Assembly (NCBI GenBank): GCA_021399345.1
Contig: JAAFKI010000069.1
Location: 1-33,726 of the forward strand
Reading direction: 5' to 3'
Source: Candidatus Heimdallarchaeota archaeon
GTDB lineage: Archaea > Asgardarchaeota > Heimdallarchaeia > Heimdallarchaeales > Heimdallarchaeaceae
DNA length: 33,726 nucleotides
Shown here: piece after piece, positions 1 to 33,643 of the stretch
Position numbering within the stretch: the first letter of the stretch is position 1
Layout: each line of letters opens with the position of its first letter
Notes under the pieces: model-generated
What the model saw: only the letters and a program-made list of their open reading frames with translations
Databases searched by the model: none
What the model was told of the DNA's origin: nothing
Translations under genes and position numbers: made by a program

Positions 1-345
1 CTAACTGCTGCACACCGTAGTGCTAGGACCAGTGTCTAAGTGTCCTTCTCGGGGCGCTAACTCTCATTACCCCTACCGATCATTGCCTAAGTGATCCTTT
101 ACATCACTTACTAGCTAATCGGCCGCGGCCTCATCCTATGGCAAACCGAAGCCCATTTTAGTATTGGCTCCTTCCAGAATTCCATACCTATCGGGTATTA
201 GTCTTAGTTTCCCAAGGTTATCCCCGTCCATAGGGCAGATTGGCGACGTGTTACTGAGCCTTTCGCCATGCCTCCGAAGAGACATTAAACTTGCATGTCT
301 ATTGCGAATCTGATAGCACCTAGGTCCGGCATGATCAACCGGCTT
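1..345 (-). rRNA. rrs: 16S rRNA, 5' portion (runs off the window start)
   Basis: Minus strand reads AAGCCGGTTGATCATGCCGGA...CATGCAAG...GGCGAAAGGCTCAGTAACACGT...GGGATAACCTTGGGAAACT...CTACGGTGTGCAGCAG, matching conserved archaeal SSU 5'-domain blocks. The exact 5' end is approximate. Confidence 0.97.
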
Positions 346-1149: not shown

Positions 1150-2832
1150 ATGCTAGATATTGAAGATTTTCAAAAAATAAGGAAGAACGTTTTTGAGTAC
1201 CAAAATAGCTTGCATGATATCATTTCTGATAAAAATTATCTTTCAGATTTGAAGATAGTTTGCGCGAATGAGAAATCATCAGAGGTTACTAAACTTTTAA
1301 GAACAATTATTGATGAACTCAAAGAAAAGCTTGATATTAATTATTTATTCACAATTTACTGGTTATACTATTTACAAACCTATTATTATAATTTTACAGA
1401 GAATGAAGAAGAAGTTAAATCTCAAATAAAGGAAATGGAAGAAATTGCACTTTCAACTAAAAATGTTGAGCATCAAGCAAATGTTTTAACTGCAAAGGCT
1501 CTGTTTAATCAGTTAAAAAGAAATAGCCAGAAAGCTAGGGACCAACTGACTGAAGCAGAACAAATTCTGAAACCTTTCAAAAAAGATTATCTAGAATCAT
1601 ATTATGCTTTACTCTATGCCCATACATTTTATCTATCATTATCAGACAAAGATTATAAATTCGCAATTAGAAACATGAAAAAGTGCTTTGATTACTATTA
1701 TCTTGAGAGTAAGAACTCTTCAGGAATGATTAAATCTCTTACCTTATTACTTAACTATTATATCTTTCTGAATCAAAAAAAGAAAACGGAAGATCTACTA
1801 AAATGGGTTTTTCAAAAAGAAAAAATACAGGATAAAATAACTAGTTCTCAAGCCGTTTTGTTGTATTGGTGTGCGGGGACAATTTCTGCAATTGACCACA
1901 AAATAGAAAATACCATATCCTATCTTAAGAACTCATATGAGAAAATAACATATGAGGGTTTACAGAAAGAGCTGATGTATGAATATACATATACTTTGAG
2001 GCTTTTGAGTAGATATTATGCTTTCCAGGGTAAATTTCAAGAATCCTATGAACTTCTTGTAGAACTTGTTAATTTTATGGAAGATGATTACGTTAAATTC
2101 AATTATATTCAAAAAAACAGAAAAAAAGTATATTTTGGGTCATATTTTACCTTGCTCTTCATCTTTGTCCAACTAGATTTAGATATTGATAATATACAAG
2201 ATAATTCTTTGAAAAAACTCTATAATTATACCAAAAGAACATTATCCAAAAAAAGAATCTCTCAAAAACTTCTCCTTAATGAAACTACAGATAATCAGCA
2301 ATTAAGTGAGCTCCTAGATGATGAAATACACGAATCTAAGGATGATGTTTATCTAGTTCTTCATCAACTTCTTATAACCCATGACTCTTACGCCACTAGT
2401 GAAATAGTTATAGAAGACAAGATTTCTTCCTTACGCGATTATGTACACGATCCACATTATCTTGATATATTGTTGGCAAAAATTTTCCTTTCAAAAGGCA
2501 ATTATAAGAAATTTAACGAAATTTTGAGGAACTTCACGAAAGAAACTGCCGGAAGTAAAGAACCCATTTTATCTATTTGGAAAGACATTTTCAGTTTACT
2601 TTCAAAATATATTAATGATCCTTCTGATATAACAATCGCAGTAGAGCTAAGTAAATTAGAGGAAATGTGTAGAAATAAAAATTTCAATAAAATTGCAGAA
2701 GAAATAAACTTCTACCAAAAACTTGTAGCCTCAAAAAAGACAATAAGTAGCTTCACCGATAAATTCCGACATACAGCCTTTATGGATATTTTCAATGAAG
2801 AATCGAAGAGAATGGTTCTAGATTCAATTTAG
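1150..2832 (+). CDS. All-helical TPR-like protein (560 aa), paralog of 31600..33186; candidate peptide-binding protein
   Basis: Long ORF of amphipathic helices with TPR-like patterns (e.g. LLSRYYAFQGKFQESYELL). Shares CANEKSS, YAxQGK and a C-terminal CRxxxFxxxxxxIxxY segment with the 31600 protein. No TM segment or signal peptide evident. Confidence 0.75.
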   Translation: MLDIEDFQKIRKNVFEYQNSLHDIISDKNYLSDLKIVCANEKSSEVTKLLRTIIDELKEKLDINYLFTIYWLYYLQTYYYNFTENEEEVKSQIKEMEEIALSTKNVEHQANVLTAKALFNQLKRNSQKARDQLTEAEQILKPFKKDYLESYYALLYAHTFYLSLSDKDYKFAIRNMKKCFDYYYLESKNSSGMIKSLTLLLNYYIFLNQKKKTEDLLKWVFQKEKIQDKITSSQAVLLYWCAGTISAIDHKIENTISYLKNSYEKITYEGLQKELMYEYTYTLRLLSRYYAFQGKFQESYELLVELVNFMEDDYVKFNYIQKNRKKVYFGSYFTLLFIFVQLDLDIDNIQDNSLKKLYNYTKRTLSKKRISQKLLLNETTDNQQLSELLDDEIHESKDDVYLVLHQLLITHDSYATSEIVIEDKISSLRDYVHDPHYLDILLAKIFLSKGNYKKFNEILRNFTKETAGSKEPILSIWKDIFSLLSKYINDPSDITIAVELSKLEEMCRNKNFNKIAEEINFYQKLVASKKTISSFTDKFRHTAFMDIFNEESKRMVLDSI

Positions 2833-2900: not shown

Positions 2901-2969
2901 TTAAGGATAATACATGGGAGGAATTATGTCGTCGTCTTCTGTTGGATCATATGTTTGGTTCTTCATCAT
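2901..2969 (-). CDS. Small peptide pepD, MMKNQTYDPTEDDDIIPPMYYP (22 aa; could start at 2981 as MSMSMMK...)
   Basis: Read directly from the minus strand. Same MM..YDP-acidic-hydrophobic-PP-x-aromatic-x-P pattern as three ORFs at 31.3-33.5 kb. Followed by an oligo-T tract (2877-2885, minus strand). Confidence 0.8.
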   Translation of the reverse strand: MMKNQTYDPTEDDDIIPPMYYP

Positions 2970-3061
2970 ACTCATACTCATCGGATAGTAGCTTTTCTGC
3001 TGAATGCAGATTAACTCTCAATATAATACTCGTAAGAAGGTATATAGTGGGCTAGAAAATT

Positions 3062-3075
3062 TTGTGACATCACAA
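3062..3075. promoter_or_regulatory. Inverted repeat TTGTGA-N2-TCACAA between the divergent pepD and HerA-like genes
   Basis: Perfect 6-bp inverted repeat. It overlaps the TGTCAC motif (minus strand, 3064-3069) that also precedes the other peptide genes. Confidence 0.45.
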
Positions 3076-3181: not shown

Positions 3182-6013
3182 ATGGCTAAAAAGAAGAAAT
3201 CTCAGTTTCGTTATAATTCTAATAAACAAAAACAAACTAATACTAGAAGGATTATTAGAGTGATTCTTCCCTGGATCTGTGTAATTGCTATTGGTTTTGT
3301 TTCTTTTATATTTCTCTTTCCAGAATTACTGAAATTGTTTCCATCTGATTTTTTCGTTTCTATAGCCGCTTTCAGTGAAAAAACTGCTCTTTTCTTGAAA
3401 GGTCTCTTTGTTACTCTCTTTACTAATTTAGCCTTCATTTCCTCAATTTCAGTTATATTTTTAGTTTTTATTGTAGTTAGATTATTACCTTTCTACAACA
3501 TTGAAGATACAGAATTCTACACTCAAAAAAAATTGTTTCTACCCTTCTTTTTTAGAAAGATTGGTGTAGTAATGGTTTCTTCCTCAACAGGAAACGGCAA
3601 CAATAAATTCAGTCACAGTAGCTATTCTAACAAGATTCATGAAGCCTTCATTAATTGTCTTTCATTAAGAACAAAAGATAGAATGTTAGCAATTTATAAA
3701 CATGCTAAGGGAGTAAGCATATTCTTTCCAGTTATTTCTAGAGGTTGGCTAAAGAGTAGAACTAATCAGCGATTAAATCGAGATATTATCTTCATTTCTA
3801 ATTCTATTGAGAGTCACTATGATTGCAGAATCAAAATTTTGAAAGGTGACCAGACTAAAGATCTTGTTCAAGCTCTGAATCAAATGAAAGCCAAGAGTAA
3901 AATTGAATCTTCTTCTGAGTTGATTACTCAATTTAATATGACTGATCAAATGTATAACATTTTTGTTAAGAATGATATAAAGGATACTTGTTTTATCATT
4001 AAGACAGATAAGAAAAGGAGAGAATCCAAGAAGATTGTTTTTGATCTTCTTCTTCTATCTGAAGACAATGCTACAGAGTCATTTATTTTAAATGCGTCTG
4101 GTTTGTCCAAAAAGAAAAGAAAAATTATAACACCTAACAGGGATTTTCTCAGTCTAGTTTTCTCCCCAATTCGTAAGAAAGAATCTGTATTAATTGATGA
4201 TGTCGCTTCCTTAGTGCATGTTCCTATGGCTTATAGGGGTGGATCTTTACCCGTTAGTGCTAAGAAAGATGGTTTTAGCGCTTCTTTTCTAAGGGGTGAA
4301 GATGAACAAATCCTTGTTGGTAAAATGGTAGGTGACAGTGATATGGGAGAAGAGATTTCCCTTAGCTTAAAAGATTTCTTGCTTAATCTTGAAGTTGCAG
4401 GGCAAATTGGTAGAGGAAAATCTTACTTAATCACTTCTGTTATTGGACAACTACTGGAAAATAAGGTCAGTACATTGGTTTTCGATATTAAGGGTGAATA
4501 TGCGAGAACATTCACTGACCACCCAAATGTTGAGATATACACAATTGGAAAACCTCATCCATTATGTTTGAATATTTTTGAAACCACTGATTCTGATGAT
4601 TTACATAATACTTTACTAATTATTGAAGAAATGTTGGTTTCTTCAAATCAAGAGTTTACACCTGCAATGAAGAATCTGTTTGAGAGTGCTCTTATATTGA
4701 CTCACAACTCCCCAAAGAGGAATTTACAAGTCTTTGTGGAGAATATTTTCAAGGTTTCACGCGAATTACAAGCTCATTCCAACATTACCTATTTACAGCA
4801 GACAATAGATGCTGTTTTGAACAGATTGAATTTCATTTTCAATCCGATTAATTTTGAGATTCTAGGGGCTATGAGAACTACTTTGGATCTTTCACTTCTA
4901 GACAAAGGTAAGAGTATTATTCTTGATTTAAGCCAATTTCAAAGAAGGGCGGCAAGACCTTCAGATATTTTTTTAGTGTGTAATTTAATACTCAAAATGC
5001 TCTATAGACAAGCATCTGCAAAAGAAATGACACGCAATTTGAGATATTTAGTAGTTCTAGAAGAAGCAATCAATATAATCCCTAATTTCTATCATTCTGA
5101 AAGTTCTGCATCTTTAATTACTGCTGAAAATAATTTTTTATTAGGAAGAAGCCTAGGTATAGGACACATCACAATATTTCAGATGTGGGATAGTGTAAGC
5201 AAAATTGTTCATGGTAATTCTGCTACTAAGTTTGTATTTAGATCAAGTGAAAAAACAGATATTATTGCTAAGGCTCTAAATTTGGAAGAAGATGAAATAT
5301 CTAACATCCAGAGCTTACCTTCACGACATTGTTTCTTGTTCTTCGAAGGTTCAGATTCTGCTGTAAAGATTCAAACACTAGACTTAATAACAGATCCCAT
5401 TAGTTTTGCAGAATACCAGTCAAAAATGTTAAAAAAATATGGTAGAAGCGTTTTTCCTTTGTTGTTTAAAAGCTTCATAGATATGAGAACTTCAATTTTT
5501 CAACAGAGCAACGCAAATGCTATTGGAAGAGGCAAGAAATTAGCAAGCAAAAAACATGATCTATCGCAAAACAAATTGAATAGTTTCATATCAAAAGACG
5601 TATCGAAAATTGATTCTAACAAGAAAATGATTATAGAAAAAGATACTTTAGATTTCATTTCCTCCGCTGGACTATTGCCTGAAAATCTGATATGCGAACA
5701 ATTGTGTTTTCAAGAGGATAGCGAGAAAAACTGCTTAAAGTATAACATGGGTGCAAAAGTTGTGAAATCCACTATACTCAATGAATGTTCCACTGAGGAG
5801 ATTTCTATTTTGCTTACTGATGTGGGAGGACTTCATTCCTTGATTTCCGCAATATCTACGAAGAGAAACCTTGAGTTCGATGAAAATCTAGTCTTTTGTA
5901 CAGTAAAAACTTTGGTTGTGGACTTTATTTCAGAGAATATCCTGACTCCAAATGAAGCTTATAGCATTCTCACAAGATTCTCTTTTGGGATTAAAGAGAC
6001 AACAAATCCTTAA
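3182..6013 (+). CDS. Membrane-anchored HerA/FtsK/VirB4-superfamily ATPase
   Basis: Two N-terminal hydrophobic segments, Walker A GQIGRGKS, VFDIKGEY (HerA/DUF87-type), Walker B VVLEEA, GRSLGI arginine-finger region, GNSATKFVFR. Confidence 0.8.
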   Translation: MAKKKKSQFRYNSNKQKQTNTRRIIRVILPWICVIAIGFVSFIFLFPELLKLFPSDFFVSIAAFSEKTALFLKGLFVTLFTNLAFISSISVIFLVFIVVRLLPFYNIEDTEFYTQKKLFLPFFFRKIGVVMVSSSTGNGNNKFSHSSYSNKIHEAFINCLSLRTKDRMLAIYKHAKGVSIFFPVISRGWLKSRTNQRLNRDIIFISNSIESHYDCRIKILKGDQTKDLVQALNQMKAKSKIESSSELITQFNMTDQMYNIFVKNDIKDTCFIIKTDKKRRESKKIVFDLLLLSEDNATESFILNASGLSKKKRKIITPNRDFLSLVFSPIRKKESVLIDDVASLVHVPMAYRGGSLPVSAKKDGFSASFLRGEDEQILVGKMVGDSDMGEEISLSLKDFLLNLEVAGQIGRGKSYLITSVIGQLLENKVSTLVFDIKGEYARTFTDHPNVEIYTIGKPHPLCLNIFETTDSDDLHNTLLIIEEMLVSSNQEFTPAMKNLFESALILTHNSPKRNLQVFVENIFKVSRELQAHSNITYLQQTIDAVLNRLNFIFNPINFEILGAMRTTLDLSLLDKGKSIILDLSQFQRRAARPSDIFLVCNLILKMLYRQASAKEMTRNLRYLVVLEEAINIIPNFYHSESSASLITAENNFLLGRSLGIGHITIFQMWDSVSKIVHGNSATKFVFRSSEKTDIIAKALNLEEDEISNIQSLPSRHCFLFFEGSDSAVKIQTLDLITDPISFAEYQSKMLKKYGRSVFPLLFKSFIDMRTSIFQQSNANAIGRGKKLASKKHDLSQNKLNSFISKDVSKIDSNKKMIIEKDTLDFISSAGLLPENLICEQLCFQEDSEKNCLKYNMGAKVVKSTILNECSTEEISILLTDVGGLHSLISAISTKRNLEFDENLVFCTVKTLVVDFISENILTPNEAYSILTRFSFGIKETTNP

Positions 6014-29465: not shown

Positions 29466-29765
29466 TTAGTTCTCTCCCCATATTTTGAATAATTGTTTCA
29501 AAGAATGAGCCAAGATATTATTATCTTTGAATTGATATATTAAGATTCTACCAAATCTCTTTTCCTTTATCAACCCTACATCTGTTAGAAATTTTAAATG
29601 TCCTTTTACTGCAGAATGATTGAGATTTATACTTCGTGATATCGCAGAAATGTTTAATTCCCCTAATTCAGCTAATAACTTTAGAATTCTTACCCTTCCT
29701 CTTGAGGAGAAAACATCTTCTAATGGTATTTTAAGCTGTATCTCTCTATCGCTTTCCTTTGTCAT
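29466..29765 (-). CDS. ArsR-type winged-helix protein, co-transcribed with cdc6
   Basis: FSSRGRVRILKLL..GELNISAISR..HLKFL..VGLIKEKRFGR; lies 9 bp after the cdc6 stop. Confidence 0.85.
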   Translation of the reverse strand: MTKESDREIQLKIPLEDVFSSRGRVRILKLLAELGELNISAISRSINLNHSAVKGHLKFLTDVGLIKEKRFGRILIYQFKDNNILAHSLKQLFKIWGEN

Positions 29766-29774
29766 TGTTTTCCC

Positions 29775-30998
29775 CTATTTTTCAGCATGTTCTACTGTTT
29801 TCTTTTGATTTTCGATTGACTTCATCAGAAAGAGTTCTATGGTTTCTACTGATATATCTGGTATGCTGATTAGTGTAGTTTTACCACGCATTCCTTCCCC
29901 TGAGATTTTTGTACTGATAACATCTTGTTTTGATAATTCTTTCAGATATGACCAGATTTGGGTATGCCGTCTAGGTTCCTCTTCATATTCCTCACAAACT
30001 AATCTATAAGAGCTAATTGCATCATTTGTTGAAATATATGCGTTTTTTGTGTGTTTTAGTTTTCTTATAATTGCAAGCAGTATCAATTTCTGATGCAGGG
30101 TTAATGTTAAAATTACTTCTCTTCTTATTTCTGGGTGAATCAAAGCTTTTGCTTTTCTTACATGATCAGGATAAACTATGGGAGAACTCTCGTCGTCAGC
30201 GCATTGTCCTGCCCCCCAAAGCATTTCTATTGCATATCGTGCATCTCCTGATTTACTTGATATATCTGCAATAAGTTCAACGGAGTCTTCGGTTATGGTA
30301 CTATCATAGAAGGCTAACTCTGATCGAGATTTAATAATGTCTTTTAAATCAGTTTCAGAGTATCGATCCAAGGAAATATGATTAGATTGAAAACTGCTTT
30401 GAGTACTTGCATCCAGTTGATGGATAAAATTCAGGTTTCTTGCTATAAAAATATATGAGATCCATTGTTTAGTTGTCATTTCACTAATTCTAAGTAGTGT
30501 GTAAAGGAAATCTGTACCTACTCTAGATATAAGGTAATCAATCTCATCTAAAACTAACAAAACCTTTGGGGAATAAAAATCAAGTAATCTAATGAGAAGT
30601 GATTGTAATTCTTCAAAGGAGTAACCTCTAGGTGGAATAGCCTTATTTAGTTTTCTTGCAAGAGTACTAATAATGAGATAAGGACTTTTGTAAATTCTAC
30701 AATTAATGTAGACAAGCAAAAAATTCTTGTTTTTATCTATATTTTCCAAAAGCTGACCAAACCGTTTAGCGAGAGTTGTTTTTCCAGATCCTGTTGGTCC
30801 AGTTATGCAAATTTTTCTCAATGGTTCATCTTGTTCTTCGAAAATTGTTTTGAAGTATTTAGCCAAAGTCCTGAGTTCTTCCTCCCTGTGTGGAAGATAT
30901 GGAGGGGTATATGTAACAGACAAACAACCAATGTTTTTGAAGACAGTTGGTTTTTTGATTAGCGAATTAAAATATTCTTCATCTGATGAGTGCATCAT
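29775..30998 (-). CDS. cdc6: Orc1/Cdc6 replication initiator
   Basis: YTPPYLPHREEE, GPTGSGKT, YINCR, LVLDEID, SGDARYAI, C-terminal winged helix with GMRGKTT wing. Confidence 0.96.
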   Translation of the reverse strand: MMHSSDEEYFNSLIKKPTVFKNIGCLSVTYTPPYLPHREEELRTLAKYFKTIFEEQDEPLRKICITGPTGSGKTTLAKRFGQLLENIDKNKNFLLVYINCRIYKSPYLIISTLARKLNKAIPPRGYSFEELQSLLIRLLDFYSPKVLLVLDEIDYLISRVGTDFLYTLLRISEMTTKQWISYIFIARNLNFIHQLDASTQSSFQSNHISLDRYSETDLKDIIKSRSELAFYDSTITEDSVELIADISSKSGDARYAIEMLWGAGQCADDESSPIVYPDHVRKAKALIHPEIRREVILTLTLHQKLILLAIIRKLKHTKNAYISTNDAISSYRLVCEEYEEEPRRHTQIWSYLKELSKQDVISTKISGEGMRGKTTLISIPDISVETIELFLMKSIENQKKTVEHAEK

Positions 30999-31198: not shown

Positions 31199-31271
31199 TG
31201 TCAGTCTTTTCTTCTTGTGCTTATGTATGTTTTTTCTTGTAATATTATAGTGCTTTACAAAGAGTTGAAAC
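31199..31271 (+). promoter_or_regulatory. Upstream element of pepA (TGTCA ... TATA-like ... AAGAGTTGAAAC)
   Basis: TGTCAG begins 73 nt before the ATG; TTATGTAT begins 22 nt after the motif start; same spacing as the other copies. Confidence 0.5.
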
Positions 31272-31343
31272 ATGATGTACGAACTAAAATATGATCCCGA
31301 CGAAGGAGATGGGGATATTATGCCTCCTGTATGGCTTCCTTAA
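31272..31343 (+). CDS. Small peptide pepA, MMYELKYDPDEGDGDIMPPVWLP (23 aa)
   Basis: Read from the sequence; member of the four-copy peptide family; pyrimidine/T-rich tract follows. Confidence 0.82.
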   Translation: MMYELKYDPDEGDGDIMPPVWLP

Positions 31344-31374
31344 CTGTTAGGTTTTCTTCTTCCTTTCCCTTTTT

Positions 31375-31446
31375 TGTCACATTTTTCTTTTGGGTGTTTT
31401 AATAGCTTCATTCTACTATTAGAGTAACCTTTCCAAGAGTTGAAAC
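31375..31446 (+). promoter_or_regulatory. Upstream element of pepB
   Basis: 64/72 nt identical to 33349-33420 (counted by eye); contains TGTCAC and TTTTAATA. Confidence 0.65.
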
Positions 31447-31521
31447 ATGATGTACGAACTAAAATATGATCCCGACGAAGGAGACGATGGAGTTTTACCT
31501 CCCGCCTGGTCCCCAGGATAA
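31447..31521 (+). CDS. Small peptide pepB, MMYELKYDPDEGDDGVLPPAWSPG (24 aa)
   Basis: Read from the sequence; family member; followed by TTCTTTTTTATTTTT. Confidence 0.82.
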   Translation: MMYELKYDPDEGDDGVLPPAWSPG

Positions 31522-31599
31522 TTCTCCTTCTTTTTTATTTTTATTTACTTCCTATTGGATTTCTCTAGTTTATATATCAATTTAAGGATTAGATTCTGA

Positions 31600-33186
31600 G
31601 TGAGTGATATGGTATTCGATAGTTTTGTAGAAGAACTAAATAATATTAATACTTCTGATGCTTTTTATAATTTCATAAACAAAATCCGTCCTATTTGTGC
31701 AAATGAAAAATCCTCTCGCATTAATCTCTTAATAGATGATTCAATCAAAAAAAGTGAAAGCTTCAGAGACACAAGAATTCTAGTAGATTTATATGATTTG
31801 AAAATCAGACAACTATATTCTTCTATGGTCAATCTTCCTGAAATTCTTGAGATTCACTCAACTATGCGGCTTTTATGTGAAAAATTAGAATATGATCAAG
31901 GATTAGCTTTGGTATTCCAGTTAGCATGGCACATAGAAAAACTTGGAGGAAATATAGATATAAGTTCCAAGAATATTAGCCAAGCAATTAACATTGTAAA
32001 AAATTCTTCTTCTATAGATGACTATACAAAATATTTTTGTTTATACTCCTATGCGATAGAAAAATGGTTAAAAAATCACAGCTTATCCAGTTCAGATATT
32101 CTTGAGGAATGTGTTTCCTACTTTTATTCTAACAACTACTATCATGGATTGGCAATGTCTTTGGGTGTTCTAATCATAATCTATCAACAAACACAAAACA
32201 AAGCAAAAGCAATGAAATTAACTCAAAAGATTCTTAGTGATAGAGTCCTTTTAACCAAATTACCTAAAGATATTAAATCTATCATTCACTTTTTTGTAGG
32301 TTTCACTCACGCATTAAGTTTCAATCTTGATAAAGCAGAAAACCACCTATTAGAGTGTCAAAGTATTTTGAAACCAATTTACAATTCGAGCATTTACTCC
32401 AGTTACTACTTAACTTCTCTCTCATATTTAACTTCAACTTATGCACTTCAAGGAAAGCTAGAATTAGCTCTTAAAACAATGAAAGAAGTAGATGGATTAA
32501 TAGAAAAAGGAATTGCTACAGTAAATCTAGATTCTTTCAACAAAGAACAAATGAAACATATTTTCAATTTAACGAAGTTTTACATACATTCGAGATTACA
32601 AAACTTTCAAATTGAAGATTTACAGGAATTAGCGCAAAAAATTATTGAAAATGTTGACAAATACCAAAGTAATGCAATGTTTTTTAGTGAATTTCTCTTG
32701 AATTCTAAACTTACTAAAGATCAGTTAGTGAAAATAAGGAATTTGAACAATCCCAGCACTGAAAGAGTTGAACACATCATTAGTTTTCTAATTGAAAGAT
32801 CAATTCATTCGGATGAACAACAGATTATGAACCACATATCTACACTAAAAAGGAGACCTGTTGAGAAGAGAATGACTTTTTCAGAGAAAGCTTTTGCTGA
32901 TTTACTAGCGGCTCAAGAATATTACAAAATCAACCGTTTTGCGGAAATCTATCCGTTATTGAAGAAGTATGAAAAACAACTTCATAAGATAGAAGTTCTT
33001 GAAATGCGTGTTTTCATGGAAGCCTTTATTCAAGTTGCTGCTTACAAGAATGGAGATCCATTGGGACCTGCTTTACAATACATGGCAATAAAGAAATGCA
33101 GACAGTATGGATTTAGTAGACTGGAGGATAAATTGTCAGATTATCTAACAATGCAAGGAAACGATACAATTAGAATGATACCGTAA
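31600..33186 (+). CDS. All-helical TPR-like protein (528 aa), paralog of 1150..2832; candidate peptide-binding protein
   Basis: CANEKSS; TPR-like HFFVGFTHALSFNLDKAENHLLEC and YLTSTYALQGKLELALKTM. Own TATA TTTATATA at ~31569. Start is GTG 31600 or ATG 31609. Confidence 0.78.
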   Translation: MSDMVFDSFVEELNNINTSDAFYNFINKIRPICANEKSSRINLLIDDSIKKSESFRDTRILVDLYDLKIRQLYSSMVNLPEILEIHSTMRLLCEKLEYDQGLALVFQLAWHIEKLGGNIDISSKNISQAINIVKNSSSIDDYTKYFCLYSYAIEKWLKNHSLSSSDILEECVSYFYSNNYYHGLAMSLGVLIIIYQQTQNKAKAMKLTQKILSDRVLLTKLPKDIKSIIHFFVGFTHALSFNLDKAENHLLECQSILKPIYNSSIYSSYYLTSLSYLTSTYALQGKLELALKTMKEVDGLIEKGIATVNLDSFNKEQMKHIFNLTKFYIHSRLQNFQIEDLQELAQKIIENVDKYQSNAMFFSEFLLNSKLTKDQLVKIRNLNNPSTERVEHIISFLIERSIHSDEQQIMNHISTLKRRPVEKRMTFSEKAFADLLAAQEYYKINRFAEIYPLLKKYEKQLHKIEVLEMRVFMEAFIQVAAYKNGDPLGPALQYMAIKKCRQYGFSRLEDKLSDYLTMQGNDTIRMIP

Positions 33187-33348
33187 ATAATCCAATTATT
33201 CCGCTTTTTTTAGAAGTTTATCGAGCGCTCTAAACAAGCATAATTTATCTTACCACACAAAAAATAGTTTACGTGGTAAGATTTTCCAAACGTATTTTCG
33301 TCGCTGGTTTGGCTTTAAAGAGAGATTGGAACGCTTTCCTTCTTTTTT

Positions 33349-33420
33349 TGTCATCTTTTTCTTTTGGGTTTTTTAATAGTTTCGTTCTACTTTTAGAGTA
33401 ACTTTTCCAAGAGTTGAAAA
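33349..33420 (+). promoter_or_regulatory. Upstream element of pepC
   Basis: Near-identical to 31375-31446. Confidence 0.65.
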
Positions 33421-33489
33421 ATGATGTACGAACAAAAATATGATCCAGGCAATGATGATGATTTGCCCCCTGGTTGGTTCCCAAACTAA
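33421..33489 (+). CDS. Small peptide pepC, MMYEQKYDPGNDDDLPPGWFPN (22 aa)
   Basis: Read from the sequence; family member with synonymous codon differences versus pepB; T-rich tract follows. Confidence 0.82.
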   Translation: MMYEQKYDPGNDDDLPPGWFPN

Positions 33490-33643
33490 TCAAATCCTCG
33501 TTTCTTTTTTCTTTCATTATCCCGATGGTTTGAAATCAAGAAGAGATTAGAATTGTTCCTTCTTGTTTTTTGATATTTCCTGTTCTAAAAATCATATGCC
33601 GATAAAGTTAAAAATCAGTAGGTTGGGTCTAATACATACTTAG

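Follow-up and report, generated by a model that had tools for sequence, protein, structure and literature searches.

Micropeptide genes of the locus

The window analyzed here is the entire contig C194 (GenBank JAAFKI010000069.1, 33,726 nt) of a metagenome-assembled genome (MAG) of Candidatus Heimdallarchaeota archaeon (GCA_021399345.1; 3.27 Mb, GC 33.5%, completeness 88.6%), a member of the family Heimdallarchaeaceae. It carries four micropeptide genes, pepA to pepD, together with two genes for proteins built of tetratricopeptide repeats (TPRs), and the relation between these peptides and proteins is the subject of this study. The 23-codon pepA (31272–31343, plus strand) and the 24-codon pepB (31447–31521, plus strand) form a tandem pair ahead of the gene for a 528-amino-acid (aa) TPR protein (31600–33186, plus strand). 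pepA is the distal member of the pair, and pepB, the proximal one, presumably encodes the cognate peptide of this protein. The 22-codon pepC (33421–33489, plus strand) follows the TPR gene and is an orphan. pepD (2901–2981, minus strand) comprises 22 codons when read from ATG 2969 (2901–2969) or 26 codons, the frame being open back to 2981, and Tyr replaces Trp in its product. The initial annotation of this stretch had proposed small open reading frames (ORFs) at these four places, the last of them adjoining a paralogue of the TPR gene, and each was found intact.

The upstream layout of pepB, pepC, and pepD consists of a TGTCA element, 16–18 nt, and a TATA-like box (31375–31379 and 31397–31405 for pepB; 33349–33353 and 33370–33379 for pepC; 3065–3069 and 3040–3046 on the minus strand for pepD). 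pepA retains the TGTCA element (31199–31203), and its spacer to the TATA position has diverged. All four genes have the Shine-Dalgarno (SD)-like sequence GAGTTGA 3 nt 5' of the ATG (31262–31268, 31437–31443, and 33411–33417 for pepA, pepB, and pepC, respectively), as well as a tract of five to nine T residues 3' of the stop codon (T6 at 31370–31375, 31531–31536, and 33505–33510 for the same three genes; T9 at 2877–2885 on the minus strand for pepD). Apart from the diverged pepA spacer, the shared upstream architecture and T-rich terminators described at first were thus confirmed.

The encoded peptides share an acidic core of 17 residues, in which an aromatic residue-Asp-Pro is followed by two variable positions, Gly-Asp, four variable positions, Pro-Pro, one variable position, Trp or Tyr, one further variable position, and Pro. 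Their net charge is −4 to −5, and they contain neither a hydrophobic segment nor a signal peptide. The extension ahead of the core is unconserved and 0 to approximately 12 residues long, and some members consist of Met and the 17-residue core. Conservation spans the entire peptide, unlike in leader-type precursors.

This last property bears on an alternative already raised in the initial annotation, namely that the peptides are precursors of ribosomally synthesized and post-translationally modified peptides (RiPPs), with the helical protein as a novel modifying or recognition component. Short peptides with conserved Trp, Tyr, and Pro residues in multi-copy, precursor-like arrays would fit such a product, as would the DUF917/S-Me-THD-like genes found within some of the arrays. 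However, no conserved leader and variable core can be distinguished, the Met-plus-core forms are leaderless, the large protein is a plain TPR solenoid, and no radical-SAM, YcaO, LanC-type, P450, or protease gene was found either in the window or among 20 related loci that were scanned. We consider a RiPP origin very unlikely. The absence of a signal peptide, a helix-turn-helix (HTH) domain, and a modifying enzyme, observed at the outset, was borne out by charge and hydrophobicity calculations, Pfam searches, structure modeling, and scans of neighboring genes.

Coding status of the peptide genes

A six-frame regular-expression search of the 3.27-Mb genome, of the kind suggested in the initial annotation, located the motif at pepA–pepD and at three further sites on contig C199, and nowhere else. 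With a degenerate DNA pattern for the core, approximately 127 matches were obtained in 22 of the 25 genomes of the genus, compared with one match for the reversed-pattern control. The same pattern gave zero matches in 16 genomes from three other families of the order.

Across 58 unique cores of 17 codons, nucleotide diversity was 0.19 at the first, 0.19 at the second, and 0.55 at the third codon position. Gly6 and Asp7, which lie outside the search pattern, were conserved in 57 and 58 of the 58 cores, with a third-position diversity of 0.45–0.48. In 12 orthologous pairs, 41 synonymous and 7 non-synonymous codon differences were counted (binomial p ~4e-17 against a neutral synonymous share of 0.27). 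The synonymous changes at conserved residues that were noticed in the window are therefore real and general. pepA and its orthologue in genome G013 encode the same peptide, with six synonymous changes in the 17-codon core and no replacement, and peptide identity may reach 100% between orthologues whose TPR proteins share just 74–87%.

Frame breaks do occur. A DNA-profile search blind to reading frame, covering the present genome and 20 related loci, retrieved 100 units, of which approximately 84 were intact and approximately 13 were broken by a frameshift, loss of the start codon, or a change of TGG to TGA. Decayed copies do lose the frame, so DNA homology alone is not what keeps it, and the intact majority is held by selection. 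Frame breaks or a lack of purifying selection at homologous loci had been named beforehand as observations that would speak against the peptides; the former were found in this minority of units, whereas the intact majority is under purifying selection. In four of the broken copies, the codon of the conserved Trp has changed from TGG to TGA (L040 5833–5967, L041 7552–7683, L043 4242–4306, and L048 4654–4733). No nonsense change arises more easily in an AT-rich genome, yet the recurrence of this one among the broken copies is conspicuous.

The repeats could in principle be non-coding, for instance origin-recognition boxes of the neighboring orc1/cdc6 gene (407 aa, 29466–30998, minus strand, divergent from pepA), promoter modules, or a small RNA, in which case the ORFs would be accidental. 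The units do start 273 nt from the orc1/cdc6 start, and the upstream non-coding part is conserved as well as the ORF. Such an explanation does not account for the codon-position periodicity or for the 41:7 excess of synonymous changes, and the broken copies show that the frame is not maintained by DNA conservation. Most units lie far from any cdc6 gene, and no Rfam family matches the peptide units in the window. On the codon substitution pattern and the distance of the units from cdc6, replication-origin and other non-coding repeats were rejected, and we assign them next to no probability.

pepA–pepD are genuine protein-coding micro-genes under purifying selection. Six of the peptide sequences were looked up in 15 billion predicted proteins, and none was present. 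None of the peptide genes reaches 90 nt, and they thus fall short of the default minimum gene length in commonly used callers, for which reason they have been overlooked so far.

The 528-aa protein and its family

The likelier start of the 528-aa ORF is ATG 31609, which would give a protein of 525 aa. The gene has its own TATA box (31569–31577) and an SD-like GAGTGAT (31602–31608) ahead of this ATG. In the AlphaFold2 model (predicted local distance difference test score 89.6, predicted template modeling score 0.86), 28 helices form a single TPR superhelix over residues 2–526, and there is no other domain. No transmembrane segment was predicted and no P-loop or NTPase domain was detected by Pfam. 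Neither Pfam nor the model showed an HTH; helical hairpins run throughout. The protein is regarded as a cytoplasmic TPR solenoid and presumed peptide receptor.

A Foldseek search of the PDB with the model returned TPR proteins exclusively. By Z-score, the best match was APC5 (Z 20.9). Peptide-bound Rap followed with Z 18–19 (root mean square deviation [rmsd] ~5.4 Å over ~320 residues, with model residues 180–527 superposed on the whole Rap chain), along with MalT domain III (Z 18.5, rmsd 4.0 Å, 288 residues), APPBP2 (Z 17.9), and NprR (Z 17.8). KLC2 with a W-acidic peptide was also among the fold matches (Z 9.2). Because Z-scores of this size are generic for helical repeats, the protein is best described as a TPR solenoid that is Rap-like in shape in its predicted structure, which is not a statement of homology. 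The C-terminal 129 residues were also considered as a separate output domain, such as an HTH. This was rejected, as the segment folded alone gave three further TPR repeats, with Rgg2 (12.2), PlcR (11.3), and NprR (10.8) among the top Z-scores. The view that the protein is helical and TPR-like, for which a comparison with RRNPP and TPR structures had been recommended, is thus supported by the model of a pure TPR solenoid.

At the sequence level, the sole Pfam match was TPR_MalT (E 0.005), under the curated cut-off. Searches of PDB sequences with whole-family and C-terminal profiles yielded nothing meaningful, the whole-family search giving designed TPRs and IFIT1 at E ≥ 5e-4. No sequence homology to Rap, NprR, PlcR, Rgg, PrgX, or AimR was detectable in the Pfam and PDB profile searches. 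Within the family, the N-terminal two-thirds of the protein are variable and residues 441–520 are the most conserved.

The family is narrowly distributed. An exhaustive profile search of 1.84 billion protein representatives retrieved just 110 relatives at E ≤ 1e-3, the weakest of which were partial matches inside much longer proteins. The labelled full-length relatives are Asgard MAG proteins, nearly all of them Heimdall and one filed under Thorarchaeota. Whole-genome searches detected it in 28 of the 30 other genomes searched from the taxonomic family, and in 0 of 16 genomes representing the remainder of the order.

Linkage of peptide and TPR genes

When loci were sampled from the peptide side (72 peptide genes, 22 loci), 56 of the 72 genes had a same-strand ORF of 450–600 aa no more than 700 nt downstream. 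The gap from the proximal peptide gene to the TPR gene was mostly 50–140 nt. Several of the other 16 are convergent with a TPR gene of the 560 type described below. As this sample is biased, sampling from the TPR side was added, with one genome taken per species from 185,579 GTDB species. It comprised 56 loci, all from Asgard MAGs and nearly all labelled Heimdall, and a same-strand peptide unit was present at all 51 loci that had upstream DNA; 49 of these units were intact. A further 14 TPR genes were selected for having no strict-pattern match nearby. In twelve cases the peptide proved to be a variant in which Phe, His, or Asn replaces Tyr; of the remaining two, one had no upstream sequence and one was of the 560 type, whose peptide is normally elsewhere.

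The same arrangement is present in a second genus, and among the genomes searched there was no case of peptides without the TPR family. These results uphold the proposed tie between the peptides and the TPR-like family. TPR and peptide copy numbers per genome correlate (Spearman 0.77, for kin genomes that are not independent), and up to 12 peptide-TPR pairs occur in one genome. Beside distant TPR homologues of three more genera (g11–g13), no peptide genes were found by relaxed regular expression, which is not proof of absence. The earlier picture of peptides arrayed around one TPR gene proved misleading for the window: in relatives, one to three peptide genes stand upstream of each TPR gene.

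When 55 TPR proteins are arranged in a tree, their clades are tracked by the variable positions of the proximal peptide. The residues at these positions are kept between orthologues and differ between paralogues. The nearest TPR relatives of the 528-aa protein, from G024 and G020, are accompanied by the same peptide type as pepB, ending in PPAW(S/V)PG. Such a clade-following and orthologue-conserved pattern fits specificity determinants.

The position of the peptide genes also invites comparison with cis-acting leader or ribosome-arrest peptides of the TnaC/SecM kind, in which stalling at Pro-Pro-x-Trp-x-Pro-stop would tune the downstream TPR gene. With approximately 22 codons, the peptide genes lie on the same strand, 26–140 nt upstream of the TPR gene in most cases, and Pro-Pro, Trp, and a C-terminal Pro are conserved in them as in known arrest peptides such as TnaC. 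The gene arrangement largely refutes this reading, chiefly through the pepD type, which is convergent with the TPR gene in at least eight genomes and has nothing downstream to regulate. In addition, a tract of five or more T residues follows 35 of 43 proximal peptide genes and a separate TATA-like box precedes 35 of 43 TPR genes; two or three tandem copies may occur, each with its own promoter; and residues specific to a paralogue are kept between orthologues, which is not expected of an arrest motif. Cis-acting attenuation is accordingly given a slight probability, a little below that of a RiPP origin.

Locus history, orphans, and broken copies

The window opens (1–345, minus strand) with the 5' part of a 16S rRNA gene. 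A 23S rRNA gene on the same strand is represented by its 3' part at the end of contig C199, so a single rRNA operon probably links the two contigs as neighbors. Given this adjacency, all seven copies of the motif on C194 and C199 would fall inside roughly 50 kb. The order tRNA-Glu, orc1/cdc6, peptide genes, TPR gene, and tRNA-Leu is syntenic in genomes G013, G009, and G020. An ArsR-type winged HTH (wHTH) gene (99 aa) sits behind the orc1/cdc6 gene of the window. The 273-nt spacer between orc1/cdc6 and pepA may contain a replication origin.

In G013 and G009, a pepC-type gene lies directly upstream of a 524-aa TPR gene from another clade. The pepC unit of the window occupies 33334–33521, and at 33528 the sequence resumes that lies 3' of this TPR gene in the relatives; between 33521 and 33528, approximately 1.8 kb with the TPR gene and its palindrome has been lost. 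No protein gene follows pepC, which sits downstream of the 528-aa gene because its own TPR partner was deleted. The simplest history suggested by these comparisons is an ancestral two-module array with differential loss. pepA, pepB, and pepC do flank the 528-aa gene at the positions given in the initial annotation, but pepC is not a working flank of that gene.

Two intact peptide genes on C199 (22469–22540 and 22630–22701, minus strand) are also orphans and lie beside an M42 peptidase gene and a gene for a 153-aa protein. At the counterpart of this locus in G011 (L050), a 528-aa TPR gene has been retained. The seventh unit (C199 32927–33009, plus strand), located between an inorganic pyrophosphatase (PPase) gene and the 3' end of the 23S rRNA gene, has an 8-nt insertion, a partial duplication, that shifts the frame past Asp-Pro; it is either a pseudogene or an assembly error. 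The genome thus holds two TPR genes, six intact peptide genes, three of them orphans, and one frameshifted copy, and the peptide-TPR system is eroded in it.

Such turnover is what a conflict pair might show, in which the TPR protein is harmful or inhibitory and the acidic peptide neutralizes it as an antitoxin or inhibitor, or the reverse, with paralogue turnover reflecting an arms race or addiction. The family diverges fast, is confined to one lineage, and occurs in multiple copies; pseudogenes of both partners are frequent, linkage of peptide and protein is tight, and the TPR protein combines variable N-terminal two-thirds with a conserved C-terminus. The modules, however, are found in conserved chromosomal synteny (tRNA-Glu, cdc6, and tRNA-Leu; PPase and phosphoenolpyruvate carboxykinase [PEPCK]) and not in mobile islands. 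Neither the 528-aa nor the 560-aa TPR protein had a PADLOC match, and the TPR-peptide system was not found on IMG/VR viral contigs. Orphan peptides outlast the loss of the TPR gene, whereas addiction predicts that the toxin is lost first or that both are lost, and toxicity would be unexpected of a TPR solenoid that lacks a catalytic domain. A conflict function is hence improbable, although it fares better than a RiPP or attenuation role.

The 560-type module and its membrane ATPase

The second TPR gene of the window (1150–2832, plus strand) encodes a 560-aa distant paralogue of the 528-aa protein (23% identity over 369 aa; family-profile E 9e-112), as had been anticipated for the neighbor of pepD. 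It is referred to as the 560 type and has 95% identical orthologues in three genomes. Next to it is the gene for a 943-aa membrane-anchored HerA/FtsK-type P-loop ATPase (3182–6013, plus strand), with two to three N-terminal hydrophobic helices and Walker A at residues 407–414 (Pfam DUF87, E 2e-12; PADLOC HerA/mad8 models, weak, E 2e-10). pepD converges with the 560-aa gene on one side and diverges from the ATPase gene on the other, and its orthologues in G009, G018, and G024 are arranged in the same way.

In two genera, at least 18 genomes have an orthologue of the ATPase gene adjoining a 560-type TPR gene or a peptide gene, in varied orientations. The persistence of this adjacency through inversions is suggestive of a functional tie. 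HerA-like ATPases and TPR proteins have been reported in archaeal 'dark matter' islands, where the present system is not mentioned (Makarova et al. 2014, PMC4158269).

The conserved trio of ATPase, peptide, and 560-type TPR protein could represent a secretion substrate with its chaperone, the TPR protein passing the peptide to the ATPase in the manner of type III class II TPR chaperones. The N-terminal membrane helices of the ATPase would suit this role, and TPR chaperones are among the generic fold matches. Against it, a single ATPase stands opposite up to a dozen TPR-peptide pairs at scattered loci, and a chaperone of 530 aa would be disproportionate for a cargo of 17 residues. Moreover, the 82%-complete assembly of G014 contains the ATPase, but searches of it found neither a TPR gene nor a peptide. 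A chaperone function therefore seems rather less probable than a conflict function.

Cis elements and recurrent neighbors

A palindrome with 10-bp arms (ATCTTACCAC and GTGGTAAGAT) and a 16-nt AT-rich center lies at 33247–33282, 60 nt 3' of the stop codon of the 528-aa gene. Eight copies exist in the genome, four of them at peptide loci, the other three of these being on C199 (22426–22457, 22863–22894, and 22932–22963); in 309 kb of related loci, 24 copies were counted. The usual place of the element is 50–150 nt past the TPR stop codon, or as a doublet after the gene for a 151–153-aa protein. A role as terminator, RNA element, or operator is conceivable. The neighborhoods of the four genomic copies away from peptide loci show no pattern.

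The 153-aa protein mentioned above (C199 23008–23469, equivalent to L001:6009–6470, minus strand) is encoded next to peptide genes in at least six genomes. Its C-terminal half is wHTH-like (weak Pfam match to HTH_40, E 0.008; Atlas feature score of 0.93 to Penicillinase_R-type clusters), and by these profile similarities it is a candidate regulator of the locus.

In both genera, many TPR genes have tandem (A/C)TGCAAT repeats, approximately 11 bp apart, at a distance of 15–20 nt ahead of the TATA box. These repeats lie between the peptide stop and the TPR start at loci L045, L050, L051, L056, L059–L061, and others, and are absent upstream of the 528-aa gene of the window. The same tandem motif precedes unrelated genes in the present genome (C197:4100, C197:6269, C171:4117 on the minus strand, and C136:7404), which hints at a shared regulator.

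DUF917/S-Me-THD-like genes (366–378 aa) are interspersed among the modules in four genomes (L032 8467–9585, L036 1761–2879, L040 4667–5785, and L042 14077–15195); there is none near the modules of the window. An FtsX-type ABC transporter, comprising an ATPase and a permease of 603–621 aa (C199 24140–26798, minus strand), stands beside peptide-TPR modules in at least six genomes. It is also found at L033, L036, L039, L042, and L050, within the conserved PPase-PEPCK region, and its adjacency may be inherited synteny or may point to an exporter.

If one of these transporters exported the peptide, the system would resemble RRNPP-style extracellular signaling, with export by the HerA/FtsK-like ATPase or the FtsX-type transporter, re-import, and binding to the TPR protein, the paralogous pairs being pherotypes. 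Stated for Asgard archaea, this would be peptide communication or self-recognition, with leaderless acidic 17-mers read by up to a dozen orthogonal TPR receptors. The cassette layout and the Rap/NprR-like shape of the receptor fit such a scheme, as do the up to 12 orthogonal pairs per genome, the membrane ATPase adjacent in at least 18 genomes, and the FtsX/ABC genes that abut modules in at least six, including on C199. However, the peptides, with a charge of −4 to −5, lack both a signal peptide and any hydrophobic stretch, and the Met-plus-core members are too short to include a leader or a processing site. Neither of the two transporters is known to export peptides, and their adjacency within two genera could reflect synteny by descent. 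In addition, no HTH output domain was found in the receptor by Pfam or in the model. We regard extracellular signaling as unlikely, though as the most credible of the alternatives considered here.

Proposed mode of action

Our preferred explanation, which we think probable, is that the core of pepA–pepD peptides is the ligand of the neighboring soluble TPR-solenoid protein, so that the modules constitute matched pairs of peptide ligand and TPR receptor, probably intracellular. Through its invariant residues, the peptide, extended and kinked by prolines, would dock in the concave groove of the superhelix. A specificity code, made up of the residue pair ahead of Gly-Asp, the residues ahead of Pro-Pro, and the residues flanking Trp, would direct each peptide to its own TPR paralogue. 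Occupancy by the peptide would then alter the action of the TPR protein on a protein partner. A TPR protein in which Pfam and the model show no DNA-binding, enzymatic, or output domain would act through another protein, and for the 560-type module, the oldest one, the adjacent membrane HerA/FtsK-like ATPase is a candidate partner. As peptide and receptor genes have separate promoters, the ratio of peptide to receptor can be regulated. The absence of an export signal together with the Met-plus-core forms makes action within the producing cell more likely than secretion.

Several observations weigh against this ligand-receptor interpretation. Co-duplication of linked genes alone would also yield the matching of peptide types to TPR clades, with no binding involved. 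Ahead of a single TPR gene there are between one and three different peptide genes. Intact partnerless peptide genes remain (pepC and the two C199 copies), and these may have non-adjacent targets or be recent relics. Since the genomes are related to each other, counts drawn from them are not independent, and the structural matches are, at their Z-scores, those expected of helical repeats in general.

Relation to known systems and significance

The closest parallel is offered by Rap-Phr and the other RRNPP systems of Bacillota and their phages (Rap, NprR-NprX, PlcR-PapR, Rgg-SHP, PrgX, and AimR-AimP), in which a small peptide gene likewise stands beside the gene for a cytoplasmic TPR receptor. 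Many paralogous cassettes per genome with peptide types matched to receptor clades are common to both, and the receptors are alike in shape (Rap Z 18–19, NprR 17.8, and C-terminal repeats like those of Rgg2, PlcR, and NprR), which is generic for TPR repeats. Like Rap, the present protein has no DNA-binding domain. In contrast to the RRNPP systems, the present one is archaeal and shows no sequence homology to them. Its peptide gene is upstream of the receptor gene, whereas it is downstream in Rap-Phr. The peptide is acidic, approximately 17 residues long, and has no signal peptide or pro-region, and export, processing, and re-import are not indicated. The receptor has approximately 14 repeats instead of 7–9, and no N-terminal HTH was found, unlike in PlcR, NprR, Rgg, PrgX, and AimR; its N-terminal repeats may bind a target as in Rap.

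Eukaryotic TPR receptors (kinesin light chain for W- and Y-acidic motifs, Hop/CHIP for EEVD, PEX5 for PTS1, and APPBP2 for the R-x-x-G C-degron) read short, extended, often acidic or aromatic, and often C-terminal peptides in their grooves. APPBP2 and KLC2 are among the fold matches, and the putative ligand here joins an acidic run with Tyr and Trp. The eukaryotic motifs, however, are parts of large proteins, whereas here the ligand would be a free-standing gene product encoded beside its presumed receptor. The likeness is one of generic TPR geometry, with no homology shown.

MalT domain III, a SUPR/TPR-like sensor of STAND ATPases, is similar in fold and through the sub-cut-off TPR_MalT match; the present protein differs in being TPR from end to end, with no NTPase domain or LuxR-type HTH. 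With the TnaC/SecM leader peptides, the peptide genes share a length of approximately 22–24 codons, the conserved Trp, the terminal Pro, and the upstream position. They differ in having their own promoter and terminator, independent tandem copies, and convergent and orphan members under selection.

To our knowledge, peptide-receptor cassettes of such design have so far been known from Bacillota and their phages. In the literature searched (full text), no archaeal counterpart or description of the peptide-TPR system was found, in agreement with the initial view that the system is undescribed.

With an unmodified putative ligand of 17 residues and a soluble putative receptor of 60 kDa, binding, specificity, and structure can be tested without cultivation. 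If binding holds true, the series of paralogues would be a natural specificity code for TPR-peptide recognition, and the conserved membrane-ATPase neighbor would be a first handle on the output. If instead the peptides are exported, this would be the first archaeal peptide pheromone system, convergent with RRNPP quorum sensing and built from unrelated parts. The host lineage, Heimdallarchaeaceae, is among the archaea closely related to eukaryotes. Two of its genera have the peptide genes, and MAG AB_125 ('classic') is one of the peptide-bearing genomes of the genus of the window. With up to a dozen matched pairs per genome, the peptide-TPR modules would amount to a sizeable unannotated regulatory layer in these archaea.

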